From the NCBI GenBank assembly GCA_964344355.1, contig CAYFNE010000007.1, forward strand, positions 7,225 to 71,224: a stretch of DNA of 64,000 bases. Reading direction: 5' to 3'. Below are positions 10,392 to 26,175 of this stretch, in pieces (position 1 is the first letter of the stretch; each line of letters starts with the position of its first letter). This DNA comes from an uncultured Magnetococcales bacterium (GTDB lineage: Bacteria > Pseudomonadota > Magnetococcia > Magnetococcales > CAYFNE01). Below the pieces are notes generated by a model. It ran no database searches, was not told the origin of the DNA, and saw only the letters and a program-made list of their open reading frames with translations. Made by a program: the position numbers and the translations under genes.

Positions 10392-10569
10392 TTGATTGTT
10401 TCCGTTCAACAATATGACCTTCCACCGGGGCGGTTCGGCAATATTTGCCCGGTTCCCCCCAGGAAATAGGTGCCCATCTCCCCAACAGGAAGGGGTTGGA
10501 ATATTTCAACGAGCCGCCGTGAAAAATACCGATACCGTACAAACCGATTCCAACCGTTCCCAAGGTGAA

Positions 10570-12573
10570 ATGCCGATCAAGGAGATGCTCAATCGGGCCA
10601 TCCACCTGCACCGCGAGGGAAACCCGCAGGAGGCGGTGCGGATTTATGATCAGTGTCTCTCCACCGGTAGCCAGGATGCCAATCTGCTCTATTTGCGCGG
10701 ATCGGCCGCCTTGGACCTCAGAAAACCTCAGGAGGCGGTCACTTTTCTCAGTGCCGCCGTGGCGAAACAACCCGGTGTGGTCACGTTTCAGGAGGCATTG
10801 GCCGCCGCCCTGTTGGCCAGTGGCAACCTGAATGCCGCCGCTCCCCGTTATGAGGAGGCCCTGCGGCTGGAACCCGAGAACGTTTCACTCCTGTTTCAAC
10901 TGGGATGCGTCCTGGTGGACCAGGGGAAAAACGAGGAAGCGGTCGAAAAACTGATCCTGGCGCTCAATCTCTTGAATCAAAGCCGGGATCCGATCAATCA
11001 ACGGCTCCGGGCCTTGGAGCCGAATCCCATCCGGATCGGCGCCTATAAAAAGTTGGCACAGATCAACGCCAAACTCGATAAACGGGTTTTTGAACAACAT
11101 TTTCTTCGGTTGCACAAACACCACGACCCCCGGGAAAAGGCGCCCAATGATTCCAGCTCCGTGGATATGCTCTTTTTGGATGCCAAAATGGCCCTGGAGA
11201 CCGCCCGAAAACAGAACCGCATTCAGCAGACGATTTATATCACCGCCTTGCAGGTTTGTTATTACCTGGGGGAGCCCATTGCCGATGCACCGGAAAATTT
11301 GATCTGCCTGCCGAGAAAAAAGTTGGCCGAATTTTTGACCACCACCCGGATACGGCGTCCGCGGGCGGTCTATTTCGATCCGGCGCGGCCCGATCAGGAG
11401 GCCATTGCCTGGAAAGTGGCCGAAATACTGGAATATATCTATCTGCTCAATCAAAAGACCGGAAACAATTATCTATTGCGAAATCGGGATCTTGAGCCGG
11501 TCCTCAAATCCGGCGAGCCGCTGCGTTTTTTTCTCGGGGCCTCGCGGCGGACGGTGGTGATGCAATACTGTTCGAGAAATCTGGCCAAGGCCCTGGAGCG
11601 GCAGGGTTGTCAGGTCAAATTTCTGATCGAGGAAAATGATCTGGAAGAGGTGGGCTTTCATACCGTCATGCAGGAATACCACGCCTTCAATCCCCACGCC
11701 GTGGTCAACATCAACCATCTCAACAATCTCTGGCTCCATCCCGACGTCTACAATATCACCTGGTGGCAGGATTTCATGCCGACCTTGACCGATCCCAAAC
11801 CCATGCCCTGGCGGGAGCGTGATATCGCCCTGGCCGCCGATCCGAATCTCATCCCCTATCTGGAAAAGACCGGCGCCAAGGATGTTCAGCGCCAGGAGTT
11901 TTGTGTGGATACCCATCTGTTCCGTAGCCGCACTCCCTGGCGGGAGCGTCGCAAGGTGGTGTTCATCGGCGGTTCCTATCTCCACCGTTTGAGCCGCTCT
12001 GCCGGTGAAATCGCAGTGATCCGGGGGGTTAATGAGAGAATGGAAGCCGGTGAACGGGTAACCCGGGAGTTTTTGCAGGAGATGGTTGATCGGTCCGGTC
12101 TGTCATTGCAACAAGGGTTCGAGTTGGGACCGGCCTTGACCTTTGTCGTACGTCAAACCGCCGTCGAATGGTCATGCCTGTTGGCCCCGGAAATGGGTCT
12201 GGAAGTGGAGGTGTATGGTCGGCTTTGGGAACAAAATCCCATTGTTAAACCCTATTTCAAGGGCGAACTGCCCCACGGCGAGGCGGTGGCCGAAGTCTAT
12301 GATCAGGCCAAATATGCCATTGCGGCCACCCCCTATGTGATCGATAGTCAACGGCTGTCGGAAATTTCCGCCTGCGGTGCGGTACCATTGATCTATGATT
12401 CCCGGCACCTGGCCCAAAAACCCCACTGGGACGAGGAGTGCCTGTGGTTTCACTCCCGGGAGACGTTCAAAGCCTGTTTGAACAAACGGCCGGTTAAGGA
12501 TCCCGGCATCATCGCCCGGACCCACTCCTATGATGCCTTCGCCCGGCGGATCCTGGAATGGGTGCGTCGATGA
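10570..12573 (+). CDS. TPR-repeat protein with C-terminal CgeB/GT1-like glycosyltransferase domain
   Basis: ORF track starts at TTG 10396. I prefer ATG 10570 (MPIKEMLNRAIHLHREGNPQEAVRIYDQCL, a typical TPR start) because the sigma-54-like element would place the transcription start near 10400. C-terminal half (RFFLGASRRTVVMQYCSRNLAKALERQGCQVKF...VVFIGGSY...PYVIDSQRLSEISACGAVPLIYD) looks like a CgeB-type glycosyltransferase. Confidence 0.75.
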   Translation: MPIKEMLNRAIHLHREGNPQEAVRIYDQCLSTGSQDANLLYLRGSAALDLRKPQEAVTFLSAAVAKQPGVVTFQEALAAALLASGNLNAAAPRYEEALRLEPENVSLLFQLGCVLVDQGKNEEAVEKLILALNLLNQSRDPINQRLRALEPNPIRIGAYKKLAQINAKLDKRVFEQHFLRLHKHHDPREKAPNDSSSVDMLFLDAKMALETARKQNRIQQTIYITALQVCYYLGEPIADAPENLICLPRKKLAEFLTTTRIRRPRAVYFDPARPDQEAIAWKVAEILEYIYLLNQKTGNNYLLRNRDLEPVLKSGEPLRFFLGASRRTVVMQYCSRNLAKALERQGCQVKFLIEENDLEEVGFHTVMQEYHAFNPHAVVNINHLNNLWLHPDVYNITWWQDFMPTLTDPKPMPWRERDIALAADPNLIPYLEKTGAKDVQRQEFCVDTHLFRSRTPWRERRKVVFIGGSYLHRLSRSAGEIAVIRGVNERMEAGERVTREFLQEMVDRSGLSLQQGFELGPALTFVVRQTAVEWSCLLAPEMGLEVEVYGRLWEQNPIVKPYFKGELPHGEAVAEVYDQAKYAIAATPYVIDSQRLSEISACGAVPLIYDSRHLAQKPHWDEECLWFHSRETFKACLNKRPVKDPGIIARTHSYDAFARRILEWVRR

Positions 12574-13544
12574 ACGCGCCCACCGGGGCGCTGGTCGGTC
12601 GACCCGCCGAGGATTTCGTTGAATCCTATCTGGGTTGGCCGTTGGCGACCCTGCTGAAATTTCCCAAATATATCACCCTGGAGGTGATCAACCGCTGCAA
12701 TGCCGCCTGCATCATGTGCGGCATCGATTTTTCCATCAAGGAAAAGGCGGTCTTGTCTCCGGAGTTGCTCGCACGTCTGGCCGACGAGTTGGGTGAATGG
12801 CGGGATCATGTGGAAAAGGTGATCATCGCCCTGGATGGCGAACCGCTGTTGGACAACCAGGTTCACGAAAAAGTCCGGGTGCTCAAACGGGCCGGCCTGA
12901 GACGGGTCAATGTCACCACCAACGCCAGCCTGCTCTCCCGGGATCGGGCCAGGGCGCTCATTGAAGCGGGTACCGATGAGATCTACATCACCATCGACTC
13001 CCTGAAAAAAGAGATTTACGAGTCCATCCGCAAAAAGCTCGATTTCGATACCGTCCATGGCAACACCATCGAACTGGTCAAGTTGCGTGATGAACTGGGC
13101 GCGGACCTGACCATTCGCGTCTTGATGGTGCAACAGGCCCTGAACCGGGAGGAGGGGGAGGCGTTCAAACGGTACTGGCGGGGAATTCTTTCCGACCGTG
13201 ACCAGATCGCCGTGCAAAGGGCTCACAACTGGGCCAGAAACGCCGATGTCATGACCTTCGGCGATGAACCGGAAATCAACAATATTCCCTGTATCTCCCT
13301 GTGGGGGACGTTGGGAATCCATGCCGATGGCCGGGTGGGGTTGTGCTGTATGGATACCACCTGTGTCCATCCATTGGGCGATTTGAATCACGACACCCTG
13401 GAGGACATCTGGAAATCCCCGGCGATGGCGCGTGCCCGCCGGTTGCATCTTCAGGGGAGACGGGCGGAAATCCCCATCTGTGACGGGTGTACGGTCTGGC
13501 GGGTGGCAAAACGGGAACTGGCTGATACGGGAGGGCCGGGATGA
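12558..13544 (+). CDS. Radical SAM enzyme with SPASM/twitch-type auxiliary cluster domain
   Basis: CxxxCxxC = CNAACIMC. C-terminal C-x13-G-x4-C (CISLWGTLGIHADGRVGLC) plus CDGC. Alternative start ATG 12570 forms an ATGA overlap with the upstream stop. Confidence 0.85.
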   Translation: MGASMNAPTGALVGRPAEDFVESYLGWPLATLLKFPKYITLEVINRCNAACIMCGIDFSIKEKAVLSPELLARLADELGEWRDHVEKVIIALDGEPLLDNQVHEKVRVLKRAGLRRVNVTTNASLLSRDRARALIEAGTDEIYITIDSLKKEIYESIRKKLDFDTVHGNTIELVKLRDELGADLTIRVLMVQQALNREEGEAFKRYWRGILSDRDQIAVQRAHNWARNADVMTFGDEPEINNIPCISLWGTLGIHADGRVGLCCMDTTCVHPLGDLNHDTLEDIWKSPAMARARRLHLQGRRAEIPICDGCTVWRVAKRELADTGGPG

Positions 13545-13568
13545 GTATCGCGCTCCGGGATCGGGACA

Positions 13569-15500
13569 ATGGCTGAACAACTCTACAAGGTGGATCACAT
13601 CATCGACGACGCCTTCGACAATGGGCCGTTCATGGACCATTGCCGGCAATTGCGGCGACGGTTCGCCCTGCGGCCCCGGGTGCTGTTGGTGCAGGTGCCG
13701 CAAATTCCCCTCAACACCTTTGACCCGGTCATCGCCCGTAAACGGGGGTACTACAATTTTCCCCCCACCGGTCTGCAATATCTCCATGAACGGGTCAACG
13801 ACCTGGGCCTGGAGGTGCGCATTCTCAATCTCAACCTGGAGATATTGAAACGGACCATCGACGATGAAACGTTTCACTTCAGTCGTTGGCTGGACATCCT
13901 GACGGCGGAGTTGGATGCCTTTCGACCATCGGTGGTCGGGGTTTCGTGCATGTTCGATGTCGGCATCGAACCGATGCTGGCCATCCTGGATCATCTGCGG
14001 CAACGGGACGATGCCGTGGTGGTGACCGGCGGTTTGATCGCCACTTATGAATGGCCCCATCTGTTCGAAGCCGGCCGTTGTCATTTCGCCGTCGCCGGCG
14101 AGGGGGAAAACAAATTTCGCTTTTTGCTCGCTTCCCTGTTCGAACTGCCCCGGGCCGAGGCGGTGGCCACGCCGGGAATTCATTTTCAGGGGACCGATGC
14201 GGTGTGCGAAACCCGGGGTCCGGTGGATGTGGTCAATTTCGATCTGAACCTGATCGCCAGTTATGACCAGGTGCGCATCGAAGAACATTGCCGTTACGGA
14301 TCCCTCAATCCCTTTGCCCGCATCGCCGGCATCGAAGACACCCCATTCGCGCCAATCCAGTTCCATCGCGGTTGTCGGGCCCTGTGTACCTTCTGCTCGG
14401 TGCATACCTTCATGGGCCGGGGGGTGCGCAATCGCCGGGTCGAAACGGTCTTCGAAGAGATGACCTTCCTGGTGGAACAGCGGGGCATCCGCCATTTTGA
14501 ATGGTTGGATGATGATCTGCTGTTCCGCAAGGAGGCGTTCAAGGATCTGTTGCGGCGGATGATCGCCAAAAACTGGGGAATCACCTGGTCGGCCAACAAT
14601 GGTTTGATCGCCGCCTCCATCGATGATGAACTGATGGCGTTGGTCCAGGATTCCGGCTGCATCGGCTTGAAGATCGGTTTTGAGACCGGCAACCCGGAAC
14701 TGTTGCGGCAGATCAAAAAACCGGGCGGTACCCTGGAAAAATTTCGTCACTGTTGCGCCGTCGTCAACCGTTATCCCAAGGTATTCACCGGCGCCAACCT
14801 GATCATCGGTTTTCCCGGCGAACGGTTCGAGCAGATCATGGACACCTTTCGCTTTTATCTGGAAAACCGCCTGGACTGGGGGGCCTTCAACGCCTGTCAG
14901 GCCATCCGGGGCGCCAGCGCCTTTGCCGAACATGGCGACTATTTCGAGTCGCAGATGAGTGGTGGCGGCAAAAACATCAAGAATTTCATTCCCGTTCGGG
15001 GTGATGCCAGCGGTCATCTGTTGAGTGGCGAAATGGTGCGGACCGGTCTGGATGTTTTCGACATCGACCCAAAATCCGAGCCCGGGGAGGAGCAGGTCAA
15101 GGAGATCTGGTTCACCTTCAATCTGGTGGCCAACTTCATGTTCAACCGCAACCTGAAGGTGGGCGCCCGGGTGGAAAAATTTATCGCCTGGGTGGAGATG
15201 GCCCAGGTACCCTACCCGGACAATCCATACATGTGCCTGTTTTTGGCCCTGGCCAGGCGGATTGCCGGCCGTGATGGCGTGGAACGGTTGCTGGACACCG
15301 CCCGCCGGGTTCTTGAAGGAAGCGGCTATTGGCGGCAGCGGTTCGCCGAGTTCGATCTCGACCGGGGGATGGCCGATTTTCCCGATGATGGTCGGTCGGC
15401 CCAGGCGCTGGTGGAGGGATTGTGCCGCAACGCCCAAAAACGCTTCGCCCACTGGTTCACCCTGGACCACCCGGCGGCCAACGATGGAGAGGGCCGATGA
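13569..15500 (+). CDS. B12-binding-domain radical SAM enzyme (class B-like)
   Basis: 643 aa. N-terminal Rossmann-like B12-binding-type region (RVLLVQVP...GLEVRILNLN...VVVTGGLIATY), then the radical SAM motif CRALCTFC. Confidence 0.85.
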   Translation: MAEQLYKVDHIIDDAFDNGPFMDHCRQLRRRFALRPRVLLVQVPQIPLNTFDPVIARKRGYYNFPPTGLQYLHERVNDLGLEVRILNLNLEILKRTIDDETFHFSRWLDILTAELDAFRPSVVGVSCMFDVGIEPMLAILDHLRQRDDAVVVTGGLIATYEWPHLFEAGRCHFAVAGEGENKFRFLLASLFELPRAEAVATPGIHFQGTDAVCETRGPVDVVNFDLNLIASYDQVRIEEHCRYGSLNPFARIAGIEDTPFAPIQFHRGCRALCTFCSVHTFMGRGVRNRRVETVFEEMTFLVEQRGIRHFEWLDDDLLFRKEAFKDLLRRMIAKNWGITWSANNGLIAASIDDELMALVQDSGCIGLKIGFETGNPELLRQIKKPGGTLEKFRHCCAVVNRYPKVFTGANLIIGFPGERFEQIMDTFRFYLENRLDWGAFNACQAIRGASAFAEHGDYFESQMSGGGKNIKNFIPVRGDASGHLLSGEMVRTGLDVFDIDPKSEPGEEQVKEIWFTFNLVANFMFNRNLKVGARVEKFIAWVEMAQVPYPDNPYMCLFLALARRIAGRDGVERLLDTARRVLEGSGYWRQRFAEFDLDRGMADFPDDGRSAQALVEGLCRNAQKRFAHWFTLDHPAANDGEGR

Positions 15501-16558
15501 GCAAGGCACCCAAGGTATTGATCGGCGGCGGCAAACTGGCTGCCAACCCGGACTATTTCAAGGCGTGGCGGCAGGGGAAAAATCCCGGTCCCCTGGTGGT
15601 GGAGGCGGGCATCGTCAATGGTTGCAACCACAACTGTCTGCACTGTGATTTTCAACAGTTCGAACCCTACGGCGACCGGAAAGGGTTCATTGACGCCGAT
15701 CTGTTTCAGACCTTTTTGCGGGATTTCGCCGGCATGGGCGGCATCGAGGTGTTTTTTGCCGGCAGCGGCGAACCCCTGCTGCATCCCAAATTCGCCGATT
15801 TCGTCAAACTGGCCAACGAACTCGGCTTGAGTTGCACCCTGAGCAGCAACGGCCAGATGCTCAACCGGAAAAATGCCGAAAAAATCCTGCCCTACCTGAA
15901 ATGGATCCGCTGTTCGGTCAATGGTGGTGACGCCAAAACCTATGCCGCCATCCATCGTTGCGGCGAAAAGGAGTTCGACCGTCTGGCGCGGAACCTGGAG
16001 ACGGCGATCAGGATACGCGATGCCGGCGGTCATGAGGCGCGGATCTCCATTCAATATATTTTGTACGATCTCAATTTCGATACCATCGCCGGGGTGGTGG
16101 ACCTGCATGAACGGGCCGGCACCGATCTGCTGGTGTTTCGCAACCGTCTGGACAAGGATGGCGGTAAAAACCGGCTGCCGGAAACGGTACTGCGGCGTTT
16201 GCGCCGGTTGGAGGTCGAACGGGATCGGGTGGAGGTGCGCTGGAACGATTTTCCCGATCAGCCCGATCTACCCACCTGGAGCCGCTGTTACGGACCCAAC
16301 TTTCGCATCAACCTCGACGCCTCGGGCAACATCATCCCCTGCGCCCGGGATTTTTATATCCCCAGTAAGGTGGGCAATATCAACACCGACCGTTTTCCGG
16401 ATATCTGGCGCTCGGAAAAACGGCGGCAGGTCTACCGTCAGATCACCAGTGGACGGGATATTCCCATCTGCGGCAAATGGTGCCAGGTCGCATTTGACAA
16501 CATCTATGTGCAGGGATGGCTGGACAGCCATCCCCTGGAGGAGATTCAACATGGCTGA
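15497..16558 (+). CDS. Radical SAM enzyme with SPASM/twitch-type auxiliary cluster domain (paralog-like to 12558..13544)
   Basis: ORF track 15422..16558. Start set to ATG 15497 (MSKAPKVLIGG), an ATGA overlap with the upstream stop. CNHNCLHC motif. C-terminal C-x13-G-x4-C (CYGPNFRINLDASGNIIPC) plus CGKWC. Confidence 0.85.
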   Translation: MSKAPKVLIGGGKLAANPDYFKAWRQGKNPGPLVVEAGIVNGCNHNCLHCDFQQFEPYGDRKGFIDADLFQTFLRDFAGMGGIEVFFAGSGEPLLHPKFADFVKLANELGLSCTLSSNGQMLNRKNAEKILPYLKWIRCSVNGGDAKTYAAIHRCGEKEFDRLARNLETAIRIRDAGGHEARISIQYILYDLNFDTIAGVVDLHERAGTDLLVFRNRLDKDGGKNRLPETVLRRLRRLEVERDRVEVRWNDFPDQPDLPTWSRCYGPNFRINLDASGNIIPCARDFYIPSKVGNINTDRFPDIWRSEKRRQVYRQITSGRDIPICGKWCQVAFDNIYVQGWLDSHPLEEIQHG

Positions 16559-17663
16559 ACCGGCTATCAACTGGTGGAACGTCGAAGTCGGCGAGGAGGC
16601 CGCGCCGCGCATCGTCGATGCCATCGCCAAGGGTCATATCAGTCAGGGGCCGGTTACCGCCGAGTTCGAGAGCGCCCTGGCCGCTTTGTTGAACGTGCCG
16701 TATGCCGTCTGTACCACCAGCGGTACCATGGCCTTGACCATCTCCCTGTTGGCCCTGGGTATCCAGCCCGGTGATGAAGTGATCATGCCCGACCGGACCT
16801 GGGTGGCCACCGCCAACGCCGCCCTGTTGCTCGGCGCCCGGGTGCGATTGGTGGATGTGCTGCCCGACGGTCCGCCGATCATGGATCATGACCGGATCGA
16901 AGCGGCCATCACCCCGAAAACCCGGGCGATTCTGCCGGTACACCTGAACGGGCGGGCTGTGGCCATGGAGCCGGTATTGACCATCGCCGAAAAACATGGG
17001 TTGGGGGTGGTCGAGGATGCCTGTCCCTCCATCTGTTCCCGCCATCGGGGTCGTTTCGTCGGTACCTTCGGTCGATTCGGCTGTTTTTCCCTGGGCATGG
17101 CCAAACTGCTGGGGACCGGACAGGGGGGGGTGATCGTTTGCCACGATGAGGCCGATTACACCCTGCTGACCCGCATCCGCAACCAGGGATTGAGCGGTTC
17201 GGCCATGAATGAACGGCATGATGTCCGCGGTGGCAACTTTAAATTTACCGATATTCAGGCCGCCCTGGGATTGGCGCAACTCGGTTTGTTGGACAAACGC
17301 ATCGAACATCAAAAGGCCATCCACCAACTCTATCTGGATGGTTTGCGGGGACTCGATGCCGTCACCTTCGTACCGGTGGATATCGAGGCCGGTGAAATAC
17401 CCTTGCGTGCCGATGCCATGAGTCCGGACCGCGACCGTTTCGTGCGCGAGATGGCCGATCGGGGTATCGCCATCGCTCCCCAGTCGCCCAATTTGAGTGA
17501 CTTTCCCTTCATCGCCGACGATGGTCGAACATTTGCCAACGCCAAACGGTTTTCCGATACCATGCTCACCCTGCCGTCGGGTCCCGATCAACCGTTGGTC
17601 AATGTGGAAAAAACGGTTGAAACCATCCGCGCCATCGATCCCCTGTTCAAACGCGCATCGTGA
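16551..17663 (+). CDS. DegT/DnrJ/EryC1/StrS-family PLP-dependent aminotransferase
   Basis: In-frame ATG 16551 (MAEPAINWW...) within ORF-track 15921..17663, with an 8-nt overlap onto the upstream gene. Motifs TTSGTMALTISLLALGIQPGDEVIMP and FSLGMAKLLGTGQGG (PLP-lysine region). Confidence 0.9.
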   Translation: MAEPAINWWNVEVGEEAAPRIVDAIAKGHISQGPVTAEFESALAALLNVPYAVCTTSGTMALTISLLALGIQPGDEVIMPDRTWVATANAALLLGARVRLVDVLPDGPPIMDHDRIEAAITPKTRAILPVHLNGRAVAMEPVLTIAEKHGLGVVEDACPSICSRHRGRFVGTFGRFGCFSLGMAKLLGTGQGGVIVCHDEADYTLLTRIRNQGLSGSAMNERHDVRGGNFKFTDIQAALGLAQLGLLDKRIEHQKAIHQLYLDGLRGLDAVTFVPVDIEAGEIPLRADAMSPDRDRFVREMADRGIAIAPQSPNLSDFPFIADDGRTFANAKRFSDTMLTLPSGPDQPLVNVEKTVETIRAIDPLFKRAS

Positions 17664-19138
17664 CCCTCACCGGTAAAGCCGATTTGTCGATCTGGGGAGC
17701 GTCGGAGGGGACCGCTCCCCTGATCGGCCATCTGCGCCAGGCCGGTTTCCAGATCGGCCATATCGTCTCCCACGAGCGGCGCTGGCAGCGGATCGAAGGT
17801 ATCCAGGTGGTGCCGCCGGAGGCCTACCGGGCCACCATCGATTCGACCATACCGCTGGTCATCGACACCGGCGCCGGGGAGTCCGCCGACGGCCGATCGT
17901 TCCTGGCCGTCCAGGAGCGGATCCGGGATCGCTGGGGGTTGAACGACGTACAGATTCTTCATCCGCTGTTTCTCGCCGATCATCTGTTCCCCCGTTTCGC
18001 CGGCAAGGCCGCCATCATCGGTTGCAACCGTTCCGGCAGCACCTTTTTGTTTCATCTGTGCAAGGCCGTTTTGGATCTGCATCCACAACCGCCGGCCGAA
18101 GGCCTCCAGCGATTTTTGCAAACCAGTGCCCGGGACCATCTGCAAACCGTCGATCAACTCCTCACCGGGGCCTTCCAGGGGGAGGGGGCCGGGGAGGGGG
18201 CTGGCTATTGCGCCCAGGGGGCCACTCGTTTCGGAGGCATGGATTTTTTTGGCGCCGCCGAAAACCGGTTTTTCTTTCTCGCTCCGTTTCCCTGCCGGCG
18301 TTATCTGTTCGACACCGTGCATCGCAGCTATTCGCTGTTGGACCGGTCCATCGTCCAACGGTTGTCCCGGTCCGGTTACGCGCTGTTGACGCCATTGAGA
18401 AATCCACTGGATATCATCGTTTCCAACGCCTTCGAGCTGGAATATGTGTTTTTCCACATGTTTCCGGGCGGCGCCCTCGATCGGGTCGAGTCCGGTGTTC
18501 GAGAGGCGTATGGGCGTCGTTTTCTCGCCGATCCGGCCTGGTTCGAACAGATGGCGCTGTATGTGAAAAGGAACATGGAGGCCTATCTGGAACTGGCCGA
18601 TCACACCACCGGCATTCGCTATGAGATGCTGTTGAGTGATCCGCGGACCGCCATGCGCCGCCTGGCGTCGGCCCTCGACCGGGATGATGATGATGAAACC
18701 CTGGCAGAGATCTGGAAACGCCATGCCTTCAAGCCGCTGGCCGCCTTCAAATCCCACTATTTCCGGCCCGGGGAGGGCAAGTGGAAACAGTATCTGGGCC
18801 GCGAACAGCTGCGTATTCTGGCCGATCTGGACTATGGGGATCTGCTTGATGCCCTGGAGTATCCGCTGGACCTGTCCGGCGGCGGCGCCGACCTGCCGCC
18901 ATTGCCGCCGGTCCCCGGGGCCGATATGGCGCTGATGTTGGCGGTGCGGGATGCCATCTTCAGCCTGCAGTTCGATACCCGGTGCAGCCAAAACCATCCG
19001 GCGGTCACCGTTCAGATGGCGAAACCGCCGCTGTCCGGGCTGGGTTTCAGTTCCAACGATGGCCAATTTTTCAACCGGTTCCAAAGATTGAAAAGCGACG
19101 GCGCCTTTCAGGATCTGTATCAGGCGTTGACCGTTTGA
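17660..19138 (+). CDS. Sulfotransferase-family protein with extra ~120-aa N-terminal domain
   Basis: GTG start forming a GTGA overlap with the upstream stop. PAPS 5'-phosphosulfate-binding-type loop AAIIGCNRSGSTFLFHL. C-terminal FRPGEGKWKQYL is typical of sulfotransferases. Confidence 0.75.
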   Translation: MTLTGKADLSIWGASEGTAPLIGHLRQAGFQIGHIVSHERRWQRIEGIQVVPPEAYRATIDSTIPLVIDTGAGESADGRSFLAVQERIRDRWGLNDVQILHPLFLADHLFPRFAGKAAIIGCNRSGSTFLFHLCKAVLDLHPQPPAEGLQRFLQTSARDHLQTVDQLLTGAFQGEGAGEGAGYCAQGATRFGGMDFFGAAENRFFFLAPFPCRRYLFDTVHRSYSLLDRSIVQRLSRSGYALLTPLRNPLDIIVSNAFELEYVFFHMFPGGALDRVESGVREAYGRRFLADPAWFEQMALYVKRNMEAYLELADHTTGIRYEMLLSDPRTAMRRLASALDRDDDDETLAEIWKRHAFKPLAAFKSHYFRPGEGKWKQYLGREQLRILADLDYGDLLDALEYPLDLSGGGADLPPLPPVPGADMALMLAVRDAIFSLQFDTRCSQNHPAVTVQMAKPPLSGLGFSSNDGQFFNRFQRLKSDGAFQDLYQALTV

Positions 19139-19174: not shown

Positions 19175-20251
19175 ATGAACATCATCGATATTGCGGGAAT
19201 CAACTGCCCGGTTTGTGATTCCGAGGTCGATCTGTTCGAACTGCCGTATCCCATGTTTCGCCACATGGATCATGGTTTTCACCGGCCCGGGCCGAAACAT
19301 GTGGCACACTGTTTCGGTTGTGGTTTGATATTCCGGGTCGCCGGCAAAAAGGCCTTGCGGGAGATCGGCGAAATCTACCGTTCCTTCGAATATTCAGCCA
19401 CCGCCGCCAATTTTCATCTGGTCTCCCAGGGTTCCGAAACCGCCCTGCAGGCCCGCACCGTTTTGCGCCATGTTCAGCGACGCGGCGCGGTGTTGGATGT
19501 TGGCTGTTTTGATGGGCGACTGCTCGACGAGTTGCATCGGGCCGGGTTCGGTGACTGTTTTGGCGTCGATCTGCGCAAACATCACCTGTTGCCGGAGCAT
19601 GTCCGGTTTTTCCCGGACATCGGCCGGATCGGGCACACCTTCGATCTGGTGACCGCCACCGGTTCCATACAGTATCTGCCCGATTTGAATCTGTTTTTCC
19701 GTACTGTCGCCGGTCTGCTCAAGGAGGATGGGGTTCTGTTCATCCAGACCACCAACATTCATACCAAACCGCTGTCGATGGTTCTCGGTGATCTCTACTA
19801 CCATTTTTCGGCCGATATTTTACGGCGGATCGGCGCCCGCCATGGTTTCATCGGTCGTCTGTTGCAGCCGGATTGGAACACCCGGGATATCGTCATGCTG
19901 CTGAAAAAAGGAATCCCGGATTCCCTGCCACCGGTCCAGGATGATGTGCGTCTCTGTCTGGAAAGGATCAAAACCCTGCGTGGTCATCTCGATGGCATCG
20001 GCCAGGAAGAGACGATGGTGTTCGGCACCACCCTGGAGGCCAGTTTCGTGGAGCATTTCCTGGGCGGCAGAACGGTGGGATTCGTGGACGAGAACGAGAA
20101 CAAGAAAAATTTCAAGGACAAGCCGGTCATCCACCCCTCGGCGGTGGCCGAAGGGCGGGTGGTCCTGGTGCCCATGTTTGAAATCGGGCGGGAGTTGACC
20201 GCCCGCCTGAATCGGGAATATGCCGGTCGTTTCGTGAACATTGCGGAGTGA
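19175..20251 (+). CDS. SAM-dependent methyltransferase with N-terminal zinc ribbon (sugar C-methyltransferase-like architecture)
   Basis: CPVCDS...HCFGCG zinc ribbon, SAM motif I VLDVGCFDGRLLDEL, and an extra C-terminal domain as in NDP-hexose C-methyltransferases. Confidence 0.75.
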   Translation: MNIIDIAGINCPVCDSEVDLFELPYPMFRHMDHGFHRPGPKHVAHCFGCGLIFRVAGKKALREIGEIYRSFEYSATAANFHLVSQGSETALQARTVLRHVQRRGAVLDVGCFDGRLLDELHRAGFGDCFGVDLRKHHLLPEHVRFFPDIGRIGHTFDLVTATGSIQYLPDLNLFFRTVAGLLKEDGVLFIQTTNIHTKPLSMVLGDLYYHFSADILRRIGARHGFIGRLLQPDWNTRDIVMLLKKGIPDSLPPVQDDVRLCLERIKTLRGHLDGIGQEETMVFGTTLEASFVEHFLGGRTVGFVDENENKKNFKDKPVIHPSAVAEGRVVLVPMFEIGRELTARLNREYAGRFVNIAE

Positions 20252-20268: not shown

Positions 20269-20766
20269 TTACGGCCAGGCGGCCCGTTTCAAAAAGGCCG
20301 TCAACGCCGTCGGTTCCTCCGGTGACCATTCCGGGTAAAATCCTTCCGCCTTGCTGAAGGGGCCGGTGATGGTCTCGTGCAGGACCACCGGATCGGTTTC
20401 CGGGACACAGGCGTAACATTCTCCATGAGAGAGCCGGGTCAGGAACGGGCGGTTCCCTTGCCGTTCACCGAGGACGATGAGACGCCGGACGCTGCCGTCA
20501 TCGTTGAAAACCGGTACCCGCAGAACCCCTTCCAAAATCATGATGGAAACGCTCTTGTGACGATGACGGTGGGGACGGTCCAGGGAGCGCCGGGTGTGGA
20601 CGATGATCATCTCCTGGATGGGATCATCATGATCGGGATGCAGGCACAGTCGGGCCCGGCCCAACTCGGAGCTTCTGGCCACCTTTTTGATGTGCTCCAA
20701 CCGTTCCTGGTCGATCAGGGGCTGGGGTTGGGGGGTGAACAGCGCAACGGATGGAATGGTTGTCAT
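20269..20766 (-). CDS. WbuC-family cupin-fold protein
   Basis: 165 aa. GRARLCLHPDHDDPIQEMIIVHTRRSLDRPHRHRHKSVSIMILEG resembles the WbuC cupin found in glycan loci. ATGA overlap with the upstream gene (20763-20766). Confidence 0.7.
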   Translation of the reverse strand: MTTIPSVALFTPQPQPLIDQERLEHIKKVARSSELGRARLCLHPDHDDPIQEMIIVHTRRSLDRPHRHRHKSVSIMILEGVLRVPVFNDDGSVRRLIVLGERQGNRPFLTRLSHGECYACVPETDPVVLHETITGPFSKAEGFYPEWSPEEPTALTAFLKRAAWP

Positions 20767-23700
20767 GAAACGGCCCTGTGTTTCTCTGGTGATCCGGCCC
20801 CCCGCATTTGACGCAACAGGTTCAAATTGGGATGCTTCGAATCCAGGGATTCTATCATGAACAGGGCGGTTTCATAGGTTTTCATATCACCCGCCTGAAG
20901 AGCGGCCAGGGCCAGTATCGACAACAGTTCCGGATTGGTTACACCGAAGGCCACCCCTTTTTTCAACAGTTCCAAGGCTTCCCGTTCCTTCTTGAGGCTC
21001 ACCAGGATCTGTCCGAGTTGAATCCAGGCATCGATCTGGTGTTCATTCAGGTCGATCGCCTGGCGAAACGAGGTCATCGCTCCATTGAGGTCGCCGGCAT
21101 TCATGTGGGCGATGCCGAGTTGGGCATGGACCTCGGCGGCGTCGGGATGGTGTTTCAAGGCCTGCTTCAAGGTTCGCACGGCGGCGGTGGTGTTTTTCAG
21201 GCTGTTTTGCAGGGTGGCCAGGAACAGGGCCAGTTCGAGGTTTTCAGGGAACCGTTGCAGATGGTGCCGCAACTCGGATTCCGCCTTTTGCAGATGGCCG
21301 GTGCGGGTCAAATCGCTGGCTTGGGCGAGCAGGAGCCTGGCCACCAGGTCGGGGCTTTTTCCGAAACCGCACTCGGGTTTTTCAGGCAACAGGGGGACCT
21401 CTTTCCGGGTATCGTTGAACTGATCCCGCCAGGCTCGCCAGAGGATCTCCCGGATTTGCAACCATTCCTGCAGGGGATCTCCCGAGTCATGGGGCCAGGC
21501 TCGCCGCTCCATTTTCAGGCTGAAAAGCAGTGTTGGCAACATCAGGTGCCGCCATAGGCGCGCCCCGACCGGCGCTTTGTATCCCCAGGCCTTTCCTTTG
21601 GCCGCCAACAGCAATTTCAACCGTAGGCGGTCGAAGAGGGGGAGGTGTTTTTCATACCGCTCCTTGAGACTGACCGGGGAAAAGCCGGTTTGACGTTCGC
21701 TGCCGGTATAGGTGCGGTACCACCACTGTTTTCCATCGAAGGTGCTGTTGAGCAGGGAGTCGTTCCAGGAGAGACCGAGCCAGGAGGCGATCCGGCTCAT
21801 CGTTTCCCGGGGATTGGTTTTGAGATTTTCGAAGGTGACCGCCCGGGAACGGTGTGCATACTCCGGCAAGGTCGGGGGGCCGCCAAAAAAATGGTCGTTG
21901 AGCAACCAGGCCAGAATGTCTTGGGTAATGGCTGGTTTACCCGGTTTGACCAAGTGTTCGACATAGTGGGAAAAATGCGATCCCAGGGAGCGGATCGGCT
22001 GTCGCACGATATGGAGAAAGAGGGTATCGGGAAAATCGTGGGTCAACATCCGGCAACGATGCGGATTGACGTTGTGCATCTGGAAAAGGATCAACGGATT
22101 GGCCGGGGCCGTGCGTCCCAACGCTTCATGATAGGCCAGATGCACCGCCTGGAAAAATCGTTGGCGGTTTTGTTCTTCCTCCGGACCGAGATGGTCGAGC
22201 AGGGAACGGATGAACCGGACCGGGGAAACGCCGATGGGCTCGTTTTGATCGGGACCCATATGGGTAAAAGTTTCGCCGTTGGCGCCCGGGCAGGGGTTGC
22301 GGGTATCGAAAAACACTGAATAGAAGCGTATGAAGGAGACGATCCGTTGCTTGGGCGTCTCATCCTTTGTCTGCTCCCAAAAATCGAAAAATTTGGTGAA
22401 ATAGCCGGGTATGCTGAGCACGTCGGGGTGGGAATCGAGCAGGCTCTGCAAAAACAGCGTGCCGCTGTCGCCATAACAGACGATCGCCGCCACCCGTTCC
22501 GGCAGGATGACTTCCGGGTTTTTCCCGGTGTCCATCCGGTCCGTTGCGGAGGGGGACCGCTCTTTGAACAGGTTGAGGGTCGGGTGTTTGGGATGGAGCA
22601 GATCGATCATGAACCGGCCGATATCATAGGTCGGTCCATCATCGTTTTCCCGGGCGGCCAGGGTCAGGTGGATCCAGGCATCCAGATTGTCGACGCCATG
22701 CCGAACCGCCCGTTCCAGTTGTTCCTGGGCGGCCCTGTTTTGGCCCCGGCCAAGCAGAACCTGACCGAGGATGAGGTGCGCCTTGGTCTGGCAGGGATCG
22801 ATTTCGAGGGCTTTTTCACAGGCGGCGGCTGCGGCGACCGGGTCTTGTGGTAATTTTCCATCCTGGGACATGTGGATGGTTGCGCACATGACGTGGAGAT
22901 CGGCACTGTCGGCGGCGAGGGAGAGGGTGGTTTTCAGCGTTTCCAAAGCCGCCTTGGGACTGCCGACCGACAGGTAGAGCGTGGCCAACAACCGGGCCAG
23001 TTGGGGATTTTTGGAAAAGTGATGAAAATGGGGGGTGAGCGCGGATATGGCTTCCGTCCGGCGGTTCGCCGCCATCAATGGCTCGATCTGCTTGATCAGG
23101 CTGCTCACCACCTGATCGGAAGCCTGTTCGAAACCTCGGCCCGGTTGTTCCTCCAGCAACTTCAACTCCGGACGGGTTTCCCGGAACAGATCCTTCCAGG
23201 TCTGCCACAGGATCTGCCGGATGATGAACCAGTCGGCCAATGCGCGGTTACTGTAATTGGGCCAGGCCAGGGTTTCCATGCGGAAGGAGAACAGGAGGAA
23301 CGGAAACAACATCGTTCGGACCCACCGCCAGTTTTGCCAGGCGGATGTCGGATAGTTCCAGTACCGAAGTTTGGCCGACAGGAGAATTTTCAACCGCAGC
23401 CGGTCGAACGGGGTATAGTAGGTGTCATGTTTGCGCTTGAGGGCGGTATCGGAGAAGCCGGTGATCTCCTCTCCCTTTGCGGCCTTGAACCAATATTGCA
23501 AACCATCCAGGGTGCTTTCCAACAGACTGTCGTTCCAGGAGATACCCAACCAATTGCAGACCTTTCGCAGGGTTTCCCGGGGGTTTTTCTTGAGATCCTC
23601 GAGCCGTACCGCCCGGGAGCGATCCGTATAACCGGATAAAACCGGTTTTCCTCCCATTAGAATGGCGTTCATCACCCAGGCGAGGTTATCGGCAAAGATG

Positions 23701-24269
23701 GGTCTTTCATCGGAGTTGCTGCGGTAATGGGAGCCCAGGGACTGGATGGGGTCCCGAATCATGTGCAGAAAAAGGGTGTTTGGAAAATCGCGTACCAGTT
23801 CCCGGGCTCGGCCCGGATGGGGGTTGTGCAGGGAATAGACCAGGACAGGGTTTTCGATGGGGGGACGTCCCAGGGCTTCGTGATAGGCCAGATGCAGCGC
23901 CTGGAACAGAAGTTTGCGCGATACCCGGGGGGTATCGCCGAGCAATCGTTTCATCGCCGGGAAAAAGATCAGTGGATCGATGCCCAGTACCTGGTCCCGG
24001 TTCGGCCCGAGGTTGGTGAACTCCCCACCGACCGGGCACTTGTTTCGCGCATCGAAAAAGGCGGCGAAGTACCGGGTGAGCGCCCCGATCGCATCCTTGG
24101 ACGACAGCCCCTTGGCCTCGTCCCAGAATCGGCAGAAAAACGTTTCCAGATAACCGGGAAGGATCAACAGTTCAGGGTGACCATCCAACAGGCTGTGCAT
24201 GAAATAGGAGCCGCTACGGCCATAGAACATGATCGCAACCACCCGTTCCGGCAAGCTTGATGATGTCAT
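20763..24269 (-). CDS. Tandem-duplicated [sulfotransferase-like + TPR] protein, 1168 aa
   Basis: Two colinear ~583-aa modules, with LPERV at residues 6 and 589. Each has a P-loop-like sulfotransferase N-terminus (MFYGRSGSYFMHSLLDGHPELL / VCYGDSGTLFLQSLLDSHPDVL), a shared HLAYHEALGR, and C-terminal TPR repeats. Confidence 0.8.
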   Translation of the reverse strand: MTSSSLPERVVAIMFYGRSGSYFMHSLLDGHPELLILPGYLETFFCRFWDEAKGLSSKDAIGALTRYFAAFFDARNKCPVGGEFTNLGPNRDQVLGIDPLIFFPAMKRLLGDTPRVSRKLLFQALHLAYHEALGRPPIENPVLVYSLHNPHPGRARELVRDFPNTLFLHMIRDPIQSLGSHYRSNSDERPIFADNLAWVMNAILMGGKPVLSGYTDRSRAVRLEDLKKNPRETLRKVCNWLGISWNDSLLESTLDGLQYWFKAAKGEEITGFSDTALKRKHDTYYTPFDRLRLKILLSAKLRYWNYPTSAWQNWRWVRTMLFPFLLFSFRMETLAWPNYSNRALADWFIIRQILWQTWKDLFRETRPELKLLEEQPGRGFEQASDQVVSSLIKQIEPLMAANRRTEAISALTPHFHHFSKNPQLARLLATLYLSVGSPKAALETLKTTLSLAADSADLHVMCATIHMSQDGKLPQDPVAAAAACEKALEIDPCQTKAHLILGQVLLGRGQNRAAQEQLERAVRHGVDNLDAWIHLTLAARENDDGPTYDIGRFMIDLLHPKHPTLNLFKERSPSATDRMDTGKNPEVILPERVAAIVCYGDSGTLFLQSLLDSHPDVLSIPGYFTKFFDFWEQTKDETPKQRIVSFIRFYSVFFDTRNPCPGANGETFTHMGPDQNEPIGVSPVRFIRSLLDHLGPEEEQNRQRFFQAVHLAYHEALGRTAPANPLILFQMHNVNPHRCRMLTHDFPDTLFLHIVRQPIRSLGSHFSHYVEHLVKPGKPAITQDILAWLLNDHFFGGPPTLPEYAHRSRAVTFENLKTNPRETMSRIASWLGLSWNDSLLNSTFDGKQWWYRTYTGSERQTGFSPVSLKERYEKHLPLFDRLRLKLLLAAKGKAWGYKAPVGARLWRHLMLPTLLFSLKMERRAWPHDSGDPLQEWLQIREILWRAWRDQFNDTRKEVPLLPEKPECGFGKSPDLVARLLLAQASDLTRTGHLQKAESELRHHLQRFPENLELALFLATLQNSLKNTTAAVRTLKQALKHHPDAAEVHAQLGIAHMNAGDLNGAMTSFRQAIDLNEHQIDAWIQLGQILVSLKKEREALELLKKGVAFGVTNPELLSILALAALQAGDMKTYETALFMIESLDSKHPNLNLLRQMRGAGSPEKHRAVS

Positions 24270-26172: not shown

Positions 26173-26175
26173 TCT

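Follow-up and report, generated by a model that had tools for sequence, protein, structure and literature searches.

Two radical SAM modules joined in one operon of a putative glycan-decoration island in an uncultured Magnetococcales bacterium

Most radical SAM enzymes that carry a SPASM or twitch domain mature a ribosomal peptide or a protein cofactor. For BtrN, the 2-deoxy-scyllo-inosamine dehydrogenase of butirosin biosynthesis, oxidation of a substrate radical via an auxiliary [4Fe-4S] cluster has been proposed, and DesII, a deaminating lyase that partners DesI in the desosamine pathway, and BlsE, a decarboxylase of the blasticidin S pathway, act on nucleotide- or nucleoside-linked sugars. 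Twitch radical SAM epimerases work on aminoglycoside and oligosaccharide sugars, with a cysteine as hydrogen donor in those of the NeoN type, and the cupin fold also often serves sugar epimerases. The class B radical SAM enzymes characterised so far are mostly methylases, and radical SAM enzymes with a B12 domain that do not methylate exist as well (BchE, HpnJ and OxsB).

The stretch of DNA analysed here (the window, 64,000 nucleotides from an uncultured, magnetotactic-type Magnetococcales bacterium) holds at about 10.5-35 kb what is probably an island of roughly 25 kb for glycan decoration. Within it, three radical SAM genes, termed RS1, RS2 and RS3, stand head to tail in one operon, followed by a gene for a DegT aminotransferase. 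The plus-strand genes of this region are:

10519..12573, plus strand: TPR protein with a C-terminal glycosyltransferase-like part, 684 aa (Pfam; gene call)
12570..13544, plus strand: RS1, twitch-domain radical SAM enzyme with one predicted four-cysteine auxiliary cluster, 324 aa (Pfam, homologs, AF2, Foldseek)
13569..15500, plus strand: RS2, radical SAM enzyme with a B12-binding domain, class B architecture, 643 aa (Pfam, homologs, PDB)
15497..16558, plus strand: RS3, twitch-domain radical SAM enzyme with one predicted four-cysteine auxiliary cluster, 353 aa (Pfam, homologs, AF2, Foldseek)
16551..17663, plus strand: DegT/DnrJ/EryC1-type PLP sugar aminotransferase, 370 aa (Pfam DegT_DnrJ_EryC1, 270 bits)
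17660..19138, plus strand: sulfotransferase-domain protein, 492 aa (Pfam Sulfotransfer_1, 35.8 bits; Sulfotransfer_3, 35.4 bits)
19175..20251, plus strand: SAM-dependent methyltransferase, 358 aa, final plus-strand gene of the operon (Pfam Methyltransf_23, 49 bits)

The motifs NRCNAACIMCG, RGCRALCTFCS and NGCNHNCLHCD, read in the translations of RS1 (12570-13544), RS2 (13569-15500) and RS3 (15497-16558), bear out a preliminary description of this DNA that had noted three consecutive CxxxCxxC proteins. The start/stop overlaps that it listed are also present in the sequence, namely ATGA between the upstream gene and RS1 (12570-12573), ATGA between RS2 and RS3 (15497-15500), and the 8-nt overlap ATGGCTGA between RS3 and DegT (16551-16558), and a GTGA overlap missing from that list joins the DegT and sulfotransferase genes (17660-17663). 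These overlaps do not chain all three enzymes, however, as had been claimed; they occur at three of the four junctions from the upstream gene to DegT, and at RS1/RS2 the stop codon (TGA, 13542-13544) and the RS2 ATG (13569) are separated by a 24-nt spacer. Overlaps of 4 and 8 nt are the usual arrangement in bacterial operons and are nothing special by themselves. The same gene boundaries were obtained from an independent gene caller run on the source contig. An opposite-strand ORF of 993 aa (12528-15509) is unsupported and was rejected as a high-GC artefact.

RS1 and RS3 match the Pfam families Radical_SAM (67 and 64.6 bits, respectively) and SPASM (49.5 and 36.2 bits). Cysteines C43/C47/C50 and C241/C259/C304/C307 are invariant in 34 homologs of RS1, as are C43/C47/C50 and C264/C282/C325/C329 in the homologs of RS3, giving auxiliary spacings of C-x17-C-x44-C-x2-C and C-x17-C-x42-C-x3-C. 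The auxiliary-cluster cysteines suspected earlier are thus conserved in the families of both outer enzymes, including the further Cys pair (C304/C307 and C325/C329), with one correction of spacing, from C-x13-G-x4-C to C-x12-G-x4-C (C241/G254/C259 in RS1, C264/G277/C282 in RS3). Having exactly four extra invariant cysteines, each enzyme is predicted to carry a single auxiliary cluster in a twitch domain of the BtrN type rather than a full SPASM domain, and of the former label "twitch/SPASM" it is the twitch part that stands. Similarly, the two had been called paralogs, and they do resemble each other (E = 8e-12), but they share only 24% identity and fall in separate orthologous groups. No invariant cysteine besides the seven cluster ligands was found in the homologs of either enzyme; at C260 of RS1, several homologs have S, T or G instead.

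The AF2 model of RS1 (pLDDT 94.1) has BtrN as its best Foldseek match (4m7t, E = 8e-13, TM 0.76 on the BtrN length), and that of RS3 (pLDDT 92.5) has DesII (8hzv, E = 1e-13) and BlsE (1.9e-13), BlsE also being the best PDB sequence match of RS3 (2e-8). BtrN is matched by sequence from both enzymes, and in a phmmer alignment C259, C304 and C307 of RS1 pair with three BtrN cysteines that we take to be ligands of its cluster. These nearest solved folds, at 16-18% identity, agree with the earlier proposal of BtrN-like sugar or cyclitol enzymes. Identity to characterised enzymes is 13-18% in the structural alignments, and the RiPP maturases SuiB and SkfB score almost level with the sugar enzymes. 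No NCBIfam model reached its cutoff for RS1, RS2 or RS3; RS3 matches TIGR04426 (rSAM_desII) weakly (E = 8e-7). The close family of RS3 is narrow and almost restricted to Magnetococcales.

The B12-binding-type N-domain previously described in the middle enzyme was recovered by Pfam (47 bits, residues 61-184), along with Radical_SAM (68 bits). RS2 belongs to a family spread over many phyla, which is similar over its full length at around 50% identity and has a family-specific C-terminal region of ~190 residues that includes invariant Trp and Asn residues. In the PDB, TsrM (6wte, E = 6e-10) is the best relative of RS2 over the full length, and the NCBIfam matches of RS2 are all far under the cutoffs (at most 95 bits, against 360-775), with the P-methyltransferase families PhpK and Sden_1168 scoring highest. 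BchE (81 bits), HpnJ (71 bits) and, weakly, OxsB are matched about as well as the methyltransferases, and these scores do not discriminate between a methylating and a non-methylating class.

The DegT protein has its best NCBIfam matches in LegC and PseC, both under cutoff, and reaches 146 bits with TIGR04427 (PLP_DesI), under the cutoff of 650. The Schiff-base lysine is kept and aligns with the lysines of 7b0m and perosamine synthetase. There is no SDR, 4,6-dehydratase or NTP-transferase among the annotations of the island, so that DegT must obtain its keto-sugar in some other way.

In the product of the gene upstream of RS1, Pfam finds TPR at residues ~65-200 and Glyco_trans_1_2 at 601-696 (27.5 bits, cutoff 25), numbered on a 725-aa ORF from 10396, and its orthologs (35-50% identity) adjoin RS1-RS2 in loci L011-L013, L031 and L035. 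Beyond the operon, the island contains:

20269..20766, minus strand: WbuC-family cupin, DUF6016 (NCBIfam TIGR04366, 100.9 bits, cutoff 42)
20763..24269, minus strand: protein of 1168 aa with two sulfotransferase matches and TPR (Pfam Sulfotransfer_3 in two stretches, 92 bits; many TPR families)
24844..25596, plus strand: UbiE-type methyltransferase, 250 aa, adjoining the phosphoramidate-like cassette (Pfam; NCBIfam matches weak)
25624..29186, minus strand: three-gene phosphoramidate-like cassette (NCBIfam), made up of the next three genes
25624-26166, minus strand: APS-kinase-like gene (NF004041, 194 bits, cutoff 127)
26176-26811, minus strand: class I amidotransferase or hydrolase (NF045546, gamma-glutamyl-CDP-amidate hydrolase, 139 bits, below the cutoff of 250)
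26808-29186, minus strand: PEP-utilising-enzyme-type kinase (NF004508, 936 bits, cutoff 501)
30904..32667, minus strand: TPR protein with a marginal family-9 (heptosyltransferase) match, 587 aa (Pfam Glyco_transf_9, 23.3 bits, cutoff 22; TIGR02193, E = 8e-5)

By its profile matches, the cassette appears to resemble the Campylobacter O-methyl-phosphoramidate donor pathway (PMC6429109), and the same cassette gene pair, with an NTP-transferase, adjoins RS1-RS2 in L007, L026 and L037.

Comparison of homologous loci reveals that the trio, profiled as the unit that had been proposed, is not a conserved one, but two modules juxtaposed in one operon here, RS1-RS2(-cupin) and RS3-DegT. Module A, comprising RS1, RS2 and a WbuC-type cupin, recurs across many phyla. 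Where RS2 identity is at least 45%, 22 loci could be evaluated; an RS1 ortholog lies directly beside the RS2 ortholog in 16 of them, and 17 have a cupin homolog no more than 4 kb from RS2. Among 43 loci whose RS2 homologs are more distant, RS1-RS2 adjacency was seen only once. The cupin is fused to the RS1 ortholog in P0202 and L093, and RS1 is fused to a GT2 glycosyltransferase in P0233; in the window this usual third partner has moved to the opposite strand. Module B, RS3 and DegT, is found almost only in Magnetococcales, and the two genes co-vary, being adjacent in L031 (63/70% identity), L089 (46/51%) and L090 (38/44%) and ~3 kb apart in L091 (38/44%), which upholds the idea of a DegT partner. 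A hexapeptide acetyltransferase gene comes next after the pair in L090 and L031, and in L089 the pair is 5 kb from two flagellin genes.

All of the related neighbourhoods examined are devoted to sugar modification, with HldE/GmhA-like enzymes, split transketolase, methyltransferases, acetyltransferases and glycosyltransferases. Among 84 RS2-family loci, which are also rich in further radical SAM genes, there is a 220-aa methyltransferase in 58, an HldE-like kinase/adenylyltransferase in 27, a split transketolase in 27-41 and an SIS isomerase in 19. None of these four accompanying genes is present in the window. The product suggested by this context is a glycoconjugate, and not a metabolite of the aminoglycoside kind.

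The best explanation, to which a probability of about 0.55 is given, is that these are sugar-tailoring enzymes of a glycan-decoration island, encoded by two modules in one operon. The most likely task of RS1-RS3 and DegT is to modify, with no need for oxygen, an unusual amino sugar destined for a surface or flagellar glycan, and a plausible course is to oxidise, transaminate and C-methylate the sugar. We infer each catalytic step, dehydrogenation and C-methylation included, as well as the substrate and acceptor. Each twitch enzyme would cleave SAM at its CxxxCxxC cluster, and the 5'-deoxyadenosyl radical would take a hydrogen off an activated sugar at a carbinol carbon, after which the single auxiliary [4Fe-4S] cluster could accept an electron from the substrate radical to give a keto-sugar. 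In module B, DegT would transaminate the ketone to an amine, which may then be decorated by the product of the following gene (a sulfotransferase here, an acetyltransferase in L031 and L090). In module A, the cupin may epimerise or isomerise the keto-sugar, and RS2 would put a methyl on an unactivated carbon via methylcobalamin. Finally, the TPR-fused transferases of the island could pass the finished sugar to a protein or surface glycan, with flagellin as a candidate acceptor, Magnetococcus flagellins having been reported as highly glycosylated (PMC7175107). Several points count against this explanation. DesII, the top fold match of RS3, is not a dehydrogenase but a lyase; in the fold comparisons identity to characterised enzymes is low and RiPP maturases are nearly equal in score; none of the three enzymes reaches an NCBIfam cutoff; the scores of RS2 do not set methylating B12-domain enzymes apart from the others; the window lacks a flagellin gene and the four genes that accompany module A elsewhere; and the cupin stands on the opposite strand.

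RS3 and DegT could instead act in the DesI/DesII order, in which case the aminotransferase would first make a 4-amino sugar and the radical SAM enzyme would then expel ammonia in a radical 1,2-shift or elimination; the outcome would be a deoxy-keto sugar, and so C-deoxygenation in place of amination. On fold grounds this logic suits the pair about equally well, DesII being the best Foldseek match of RS3, and the weak rSAM_desII match and the PLP_DesI match of DegT lean the same way. However, RS3 keeps four invariant extra cysteines, while DesII has, to our knowledge, no auxiliary cluster; DegT scores better against LegC, PseC and perosamine-type transaminases; and in L031 and L090 an N-acetyltransferase comes after the pair, implying that the amine is kept. 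These points make this order unlikely. A similarly improbable alternative is radical epimerisation by RS1, RS3 or both, after the manner of NeoN (mentioned in PMC10991966), HygY and AviX12, in which a sugar stereocentre would be inverted without oxidation and the ketone for DegT would be made elsewhere. The tight linkage of RS1 to the cupin would suit epimerisation, but neither family has a spare invariant cysteine as hydrogen donor, C260 of RS1 being variable, and nothing else in the island is an obvious candidate for oxidising the DegT substrate.

A reading that deserves somewhat more credit, though still doubtful, is that RS2 is not a methyltransferase but catalyses a cobalamin-based sugar rearrangement or cyclisation (ring contraction of the HpnJ/OxsB type) or heptose-extending C-C bond formation. 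This would account for HpnJ, BchE and OxsB matches on a par with those to methyltransferases, for the family-specific C-terminal region, and for related clusters already full of ordinary methyltransferases, plus transketolase-like C2-transfer enzymes; the general rule among class B enzymes, TsrM as the best solved relative and the top-scoring P-methyltransferase families speak for methylation instead. That the trio matures a RiPP or protein cofactor is very improbable. The fold matches do include SuiB, SkfB, CteB and anSME (E = 1e-9 to 1e-13), and the weak NCBIfam matches include peptide maturases, but none of 20 small intergenic ORFs at 8.2-21 kb was matched in 79 related loci, so no conserved small peptide gene emerged and the earlier argument from a missing precursor peptide gains weight. 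Neither an RRE nor a PqqD-like domain was detected with Pfam, the auxiliary cysteines number four and not seven, and the examined neighbourhoods and the fusions to a sugar-type cupin and a GT2 glycosyltransferase are all sugar-related.

Sugar tailoring in a glycoconjugate island, the preferred reading, brings together uncharacterised enzyme families and chemistry of a known kind. Like BtrN, RS1 and RS3 combine a radical SAM core with a twitch domain predicted to hold one auxiliary [4Fe-4S] cluster, with four auxiliary cysteines, arranged in BtrN as C...C...CxxC, and the DegT-type partner in BtrN/BtrS resembles the trio with its aminotransferase. They share 16-17% identity with BtrN, however, and are 55-85 residues longer; RS1 is conserved together with a cupin and a B12-type radical SAM enzyme instead of an aminotransferase; and the surrounding genes belong to a glycoconjugate island and not to an aminoglycoside cluster, with nothing to suggest a cyclitol substrate or to support the cyclitol product once considered. 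RS2 shares with GenK, Fom3, TsrM and PhpK an N-terminal B12-binding Rossmann domain and a radical SAM core with CxxxCxxC, but differs in its conserved extra C-terminal region, in the obligatory pairing of its subfamily with a twitch radical SAM enzyme, and in approaching no family cutoff. DesII and BlsE, the two best structural neighbours of RS3 (16-18% identity), are likewise close in substrate type, and DesII in its DegT-family partner, whereas the four auxiliary cysteines conserved in RS3 suggest redox chemistry. The 10519..12573 product has the N-terminal TPR and C-terminal glycosyltransferase layout of Caulobacter FlmG, a flagellin glycosyltransferase of two-part architecture (PMC7591256), a likeness of architecture only. 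The window differs from flagellin glycosylation islands in having neither pseudaminic or legionaminic acid synthase genes nor a flagellin gene, yet in Magnetococcus sp. THC-1 the RS3-DegT cluster lies beside two flagellin and two Glyco_trans_1_2 genes.

The radical SAM proteins RS1, RS2 and RS3, described previously as a translationally coupled trio feeding a DegT aminotransferase, are not a conserved unit but belong to two separate modules, RS1-RS2 (with a cupin) and RS3-DegT, which are joined here in one operon. The earlier finding needs correcting mainly on this point. Gene boundaries were taken from an independent gene caller on the 96.5-kb metagenome contig that contains the window (ENA ERZ930068, k127_22931) and compared with a reading of the ORF list, and both gene sets agree across the operon. 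The closest relatives of the proteins in the window come from Magnetococcales metagenome-assembled genomes.

Gene calls across the operon and its flanks (positions in the window)
10519-12573, plus strand, TPR + glycosyltransferase-like protein
12570-13544, plus strand, RS1
13569-15500, plus strand, RS2
15497-16558, plus strand, RS3
16551-17663, plus strand, DegT aminotransferase
17660-19138, plus strand, sulfotransferase-domain protein
19175-20251, plus strand, methyltransferase
20269-20766, minus strand, cupin (WbuC/DUF6016)

The overlaps said to chain these genes are present at 12570 (ATGA), 15497 (ATGA) and 16551-58 (ATGGCTGA), but RS1 and RS2 are separated by a 24-nt spacer; an additional overlap, GTGA at 17660, had not been listed. 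Gene overlaps of such kind are an ordinary feature of bacterial operons. A 993-aa ORF antisense to RS1 and RS2 (12528-15509, minus strand) was rejected as a high-G+C artefact, homology being all on the plus strand, and no RNA elements were detected in the window by Rfam at gathering thresholds. The island of glycan-decoration genes around the operon extends to position ∼35 kb of the window, with more transferases, a phosphoramidate-like cassette, an aldo-keto reductase, an acyl-CoA ligase and a thioesterase, and a transposase lies beyond it at 37.3 kb. The aldo-keto reductase (29643-30887, plus strand) has a C-terminal segment resembling a 4Fe-4S dicluster ferredoxin (weak matches to Fer4_9 and Fer4_17). 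A solitary Cas11e/Cse2 homolog (9561-10187, plus strand; PADLOC PDLC01583, 126.8 bits; TIGR02548, 45.8 against a cutoff of 28.5) has an ArsR/rhodanese regulator gene on one side and the glycan island on the other, no other cas genes being annotated in the whole window. Further along, a 1129-aa protein (49975-53364, minus strand) without a Pfam match on record sits among response-regulator, GGDEF and histidine-kinase genes.

Radical SAM enzymes use a CxxxCxxC motif in a partial TIM barrel to bind a SAM-cleaving [4Fe-4S] cluster. The three such motifs noted previously are present; the middle protein also has the B12-binding domain, both outer proteins match the SPASM model, and the aminotransferase has the DegT domain. 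All three proteins belong to the superfamily (PF04055, 64.6–68.4 bits against a gathering threshold of 29.5), and the motif cysteines are invariant in the 34–35 homologs aligned per family. The auxiliary-cluster cysteines, whose variation among homologs would by its own account have counted against the preliminary description, are also kept in both outer enzymes. The RS1 family (34 sequences, down to 30% identity) has invariant C43, C47 and C50 plus C241, C259, C304 and C307, and the RS3 family (35 sequences, down to 22% identity) has C43, C47 and C50 plus C264, C282, C325 and C329, with no further invariant cysteine in either alignment. With the invariant glycine of the twitch site (G254 in RS1, G277 in RS3), the four auxiliary cysteines form a single site of the pattern C-x12-G-x4-C, with CxxC or CxxxC after it.

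A SPASM domain is characterized by a seven-cysteine motif (C-x9-15-G-x4-C...C-x2-C-x5-C-x3-C...C) and two auxiliary [4Fe-4S] clusters, whereas twitch is a shortened SPASM domain with just one auxiliary [4Fe-4S] cluster, held by four cysteines. Despite matches to the Pfam SPASM model (49.5 bits for RS1, 36.2 bits for RS3), a full SPASM or anSME-type class was rejected for the outer enzymes, previously labelled SPASM as well as twitch, since only four auxiliary cysteines are invariant per family rather than seven. From their sequences they class as twitch (BtrN-like) proteins with a predicted auxiliary cluster, and residues 250-314 of RS1 align to the twitch region of BtrN. Their description as paralogs holds only loosely, the identity between them being just 24%.

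RS2 has the architecture of class B enzymes, with a B12-binding domain at residues 61-184 (PF02310, 47 bits against 32.1) and the Radical_SAM domain at 264-429. Membership of the DegT/DnrJ/EryC1 family is clear for the aminotransferase (PF01041, 270 bits). Dehydratase members of this family lack the PLP Schiff-base lysine, which in the DegT protein lies in FSLGMAKLL and aligns with FSFNGNKII of 7b0m and FSFFGNKII of perosamine synthetase (3bn1). The protein is closest in kind to LegC, PseC and perosamine-type transaminases, although it reaches no NCBIfam equivalog cutoff. RS1, RS2 and RS3 stay far below the cutoffs of all NCBIfam models, and neither these three nor the partner genes of related loci match a specific NCBIfam or Pfam family above threshold.

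The two modules differ in how widely they are distributed. RS2 belongs to a large family that is full-length at ∼50% identity, found in Magnetococcales, Omnitrophota, Sedimentisphaerales, Planctomycetota, Dehalococcoidia, Rhodospirillales, Gallionellales and Humidesulfovibrio. Where RS2 is at least 45% identical (22 evaluable loci), an RS1 ortholog is directly adjacent on the same strand in 16, a DUF6016 protein lies within 4 kb in 17 and a DegT gene within 6 kb in 10, whereas RS1 is present in just one of the 43 loci with more distant RS2 homologs. The RS2 search gave 307 genome hits in all, and distant homologs are encoded by the cultivable strains Paramagnetospirillum caucaseum SO-1, Tistlia consotensis and Rhodopseudomonas pentothenatexigens (L077, L078 and L088). 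The DUF6016 cupin belongs to the WbuC family (TIGR04366, 100.9 bits against a cutoff of 42); in the window it is encoded 5 kb downstream on the opposite strand, and in one lineage it is fused to RS1 as a 503-aa protein located between DegT and the RS2 ortholog (P0202; locus L093, 10001-11512). Another RS1 relative forms a 543-aa fusion with a family-2 glycosyltransferase (P0233).

The RS3 family, on the other hand, is small: when 1.84 billion representatives were scanned exhaustively with HMMER, about nine clusters at ≥35% identity were found, nearly all of them from Magnetococcales. Magnetococcus strains have RS3 homologs as well. Close RS3 orthologs were found in only a handful of loci, and in none of the four contexts first examined. 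RS3 homologs lie directly upstream of a DegT orthologous to that of the window, and both identities drop in step, from 63% (RS3) and 70% (DegT) in L031 to 46% and 51% in L089 and 38% and 44% in L090, the two genes being adjacent in each; L091 has the same 38% and 44%, with toxin-antitoxin genes inserted between them. Both modules occur in L031, another Magnetococcales genome, in a different order and with a separate DegT for each.

Gene neighbourhoods of related loci are uniformly sugar-related. Among 84 loci with RS2-family genes, an HldE-like heptose kinase/adenylyltransferase is nearby in 27, a GmhA-type SIS isomerase in 19, a split transketolase in 27–41, a 220-aa methyltransferase in 58 and additional radical SAM proteins of 355–358 aa in 35–46, and other neighbours include TylC3-type C-methyltransferases, dTDP-sugar isomerases, SDR epimerases, a heptosyltransferase, sulfotransferases and ABC exporters. 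All of these partner proteins score below the curated NCBIfam thresholds, and no HldE, SIS isomerase, transketolase, 220-aa methyltransferase or flagellin genes were found within the 64-kb window. Many of the loci, across many phyla (L009, L018, L019, L055, L090 and L093 among others), share a larger conserved cluster comprising a reversed-order HldE-like gene, SIS isomerase, 355-aa radical SAM protein, split transketolase, 220-aa methyltransferase, 358-aa radical SAM protein, DegT, cupin, RS1 and RS2, some with four to six radical SAM genes, and no publication on this cluster was found. RS2-family homologs with 36–38% identity also occur in DPANN bins (L045 and L049; Nanoarchaeota and Woesearchaeota MAGs), with DegT and HldE-like genes nearby in L049. 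Literature searches covering DUF6016, radical SAM enzymes (cobalamin-type ones included) in relation to flagellin and its glycosylation or to heptose and transketolase, and twitch dehydrogenases with aminotransferases and sugars gave no description of the module, and the WbuC literature found was concerned just with the position of wbuC beside blaCTX-M.

The gene of a RiPP radical SAM maturase lies beside one for a precursor peptide, and the enzyme usually starts with a peptide-binding domain of the RRE/PqqD type. Neither was seen here: 20 small ORFs (20–90 aa) from the non-genic space of 8.2–21 kb gave no matches in 79 related loci, and no RRE/PqqD-like domain was matched in Pfam. As no small ORF near the trio is kept and the neighbourhoods are all sugar-related, membership of the RiPP maturases was rejected, in agreement with the earlier view that such a role is less likely.

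In the favoured mechanism, the twitch enzymes RS1 and RS3 would act as radical dehydrogenases on an activated sugar, with the 5'-deoxyadenosyl radical taking a hydrogen and the electron leaving via the auxiliary cluster. The ketone formed by RS3 would be transaminated by DegT, while the product of RS1 would pass to the cupin and RS2, most simply for C-methylation via methylcobalamin. Dehydrogenase activity (a two-electron, BtrN- or anSME-like conversion of carbinol to carbonyl) is inferred on three grounds, namely the auxiliary cluster, the pairing with an aminotransferase and the lack of any annotated 4,6-dehydratase or other oxidase in the island. Epimerisation is a live rival, but neither outer family has an invariant hydrogen-donor cysteine of the epimerase type, which further supports an oxidase role. 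DesII-type deamination is also a live rival; a hexapeptide acetyltransferase follows RS3-DegT in L090 and L031, as would be expected if the amine were kept and acylated, and a sulfotransferase takes that position in the window. For RS2, a non-methylating B12 reaction is a live rival to C-methylation. RS2 reaches none of the class B methyltransferase equivalog cutoffs (PhpK, HpnR, GenK-like, TsrM and others), the best being the PhpK-family TIGR04479 with 95 bits against a cutoff of 600 and the rest lower.

The earlier reading of oxygen-independent sugar chemistry is reasonable and partly supported, but a glycoconjugate sugar is a more likely product than the cyclitol proposed alongside it. More broadly, RS1, RS2 and the WbuC cupin, with or without DegT, may form the core of a widespread, undescribed, radical-SAM-rich and oxygen-independent pathway to a heavily modified heptose-derived sugar for flagellin or surface glycosylation. 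The modifications would include amination, C-methylation and possibly chain extension, and twitch dehydrogenases would stand in for the NAD-dependent 4,6-dehydratases and oxidases used in classical routes to deoxy-amino sugars. This reading is tentative, with a probability of roughly 0.3. It would apply to Magnetococcales, Omnitrophota, Planctomycetota, Dehalococcoidia, Desulfovibrionales and Rhodospirillales, with more distant RS2 relatives in DPANN archaea.

With regard to the acceptor, the TPR-glycosyltransferase-like protein at 10519-12573 has the same layout as FlmG, a likeness of architecture, and two further TPR proteins are encoded in the island.

Further TPR proteins of the island (positions in the window)
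20763-24269, minus strand, TPR + two sulfotransferase matches
30904-32667, minus strand, TPR + marginal GT9 heptosyltransferase match

The TPR domain of FlmG binds flagellin (PMC7591256), and by analogy this suggests that a protein substrate may be recognised here via the TPR repeats. Magnetococcus flagellins are highly glycosylated (PMC7175107), and in Magnetococcus sp. THC-1 two Glyco_trans_1_2 genes adjoin the RS3-DegT pair, with two flagellin genes 5 kb away from it. Based on the TPR-transferase architecture and this single flagellin-adjacent locus, the leading guess for the acceptor in the window is a protein glycan, possibly on flagellin.

Three adjacent genes (25624-29186, minus strand), with a methyltransferase alongside (24844-25596, plus strand), resemble the Campylobacter O-methyl-phosphoramidate (MeOPN) donor pathway, for which the enzymes sought were L-glutamine kinase, CTP:phosphoglutamine cytidylyltransferase, gamma-glutamyl-CDP-amidate hydrolase and CDP-amidate kinase. 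The cassette encodes a PEP-utilising-enzyme-type kinase (NF004508, which we take to be Cj1418; 936 bits against 501), an APS-kinase-like protein (NF004041, 194 bits against 127) and a class I amidotransferase best matching gamma-glutamyl-CDP-amidate hydrolase (139 bits, under the cutoff of 250), while no cytidylyltransferase was found in the window. Kinase and hydrolase genes with an NTP-transferase adjoin RS1-RS2 in L007, L026 and L037. The donor 3'-phospho-CDP-amidate resembles PAPS, and on that likeness it may be speculated that the many "sulfotransferase" domains of the island transfer phosphoramidate.

To our knowledge, nearly all known cases of sugar tailoring by radical SAM enzymes come from antibiotic pathways such as those of butirosin, gentamicin, desosamine and blasticidin. 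Enzymes of these types occur here as conserved modules in islands for glycan decoration, in many lineages of uncultured bacteria, several known to be anaerobic or microaerophilic. If the chemistry is as proposed, amino and C-methyl surface sugars would be made by an oxygen- and NAD-independent route, and genomes could usefully be searched for the RS1-RS2-cupin module as a marker of modified sugars of a new class. The two twitch families and the B12 radical SAM family, all three new, have clear partner genes and are thus tractable for reconstitution. The importance is moderate, as the chemistry extends known types and nothing here contradicts current understanding.

AlphaFold models of RS1 and RS3 are confident (pLDDT 94.1 and 92.5). 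Foldseek searches against the PDB placed BtrN first for RS1 (E = 8e-13), followed by BlsE, SuiB, SkfB, DesII and MoaA, and DesII first for RS3 (1e-13), followed by BlsE, SkfB and SuiB; sequence searches of the PDB returned BtrN, MoaA and BlsE at E = 1e-5 to 2e-8, and identity to the nearest solved structures is 13–18%. RS2 is remote from all solved B12 radical SAM enzymes, its best full-length match being TsrM (E = 6e-10). RS1 and RS3 share just 16–17% identity with BtrN (sequence E about 1e-6), and no gene for 2-deoxy-scyllo-inosose synthase or any other aminoglycoside gene appears in the annotation of the window or of those related loci that have one; given this low identity and gene context, a BtrN equivalog (2-deoxy-scyllo-inosamine dehydrogenase) was rejected. 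By structure and sequence, the closest solved relatives of RS1 and RS3 are sugar or cyclitol enzymes, although peptide maturases rank close behind and fold alone does not settle the substrate class. The trio probably represents an uncharacterised form of the sugar chemistry already known for radical SAM enzymes.
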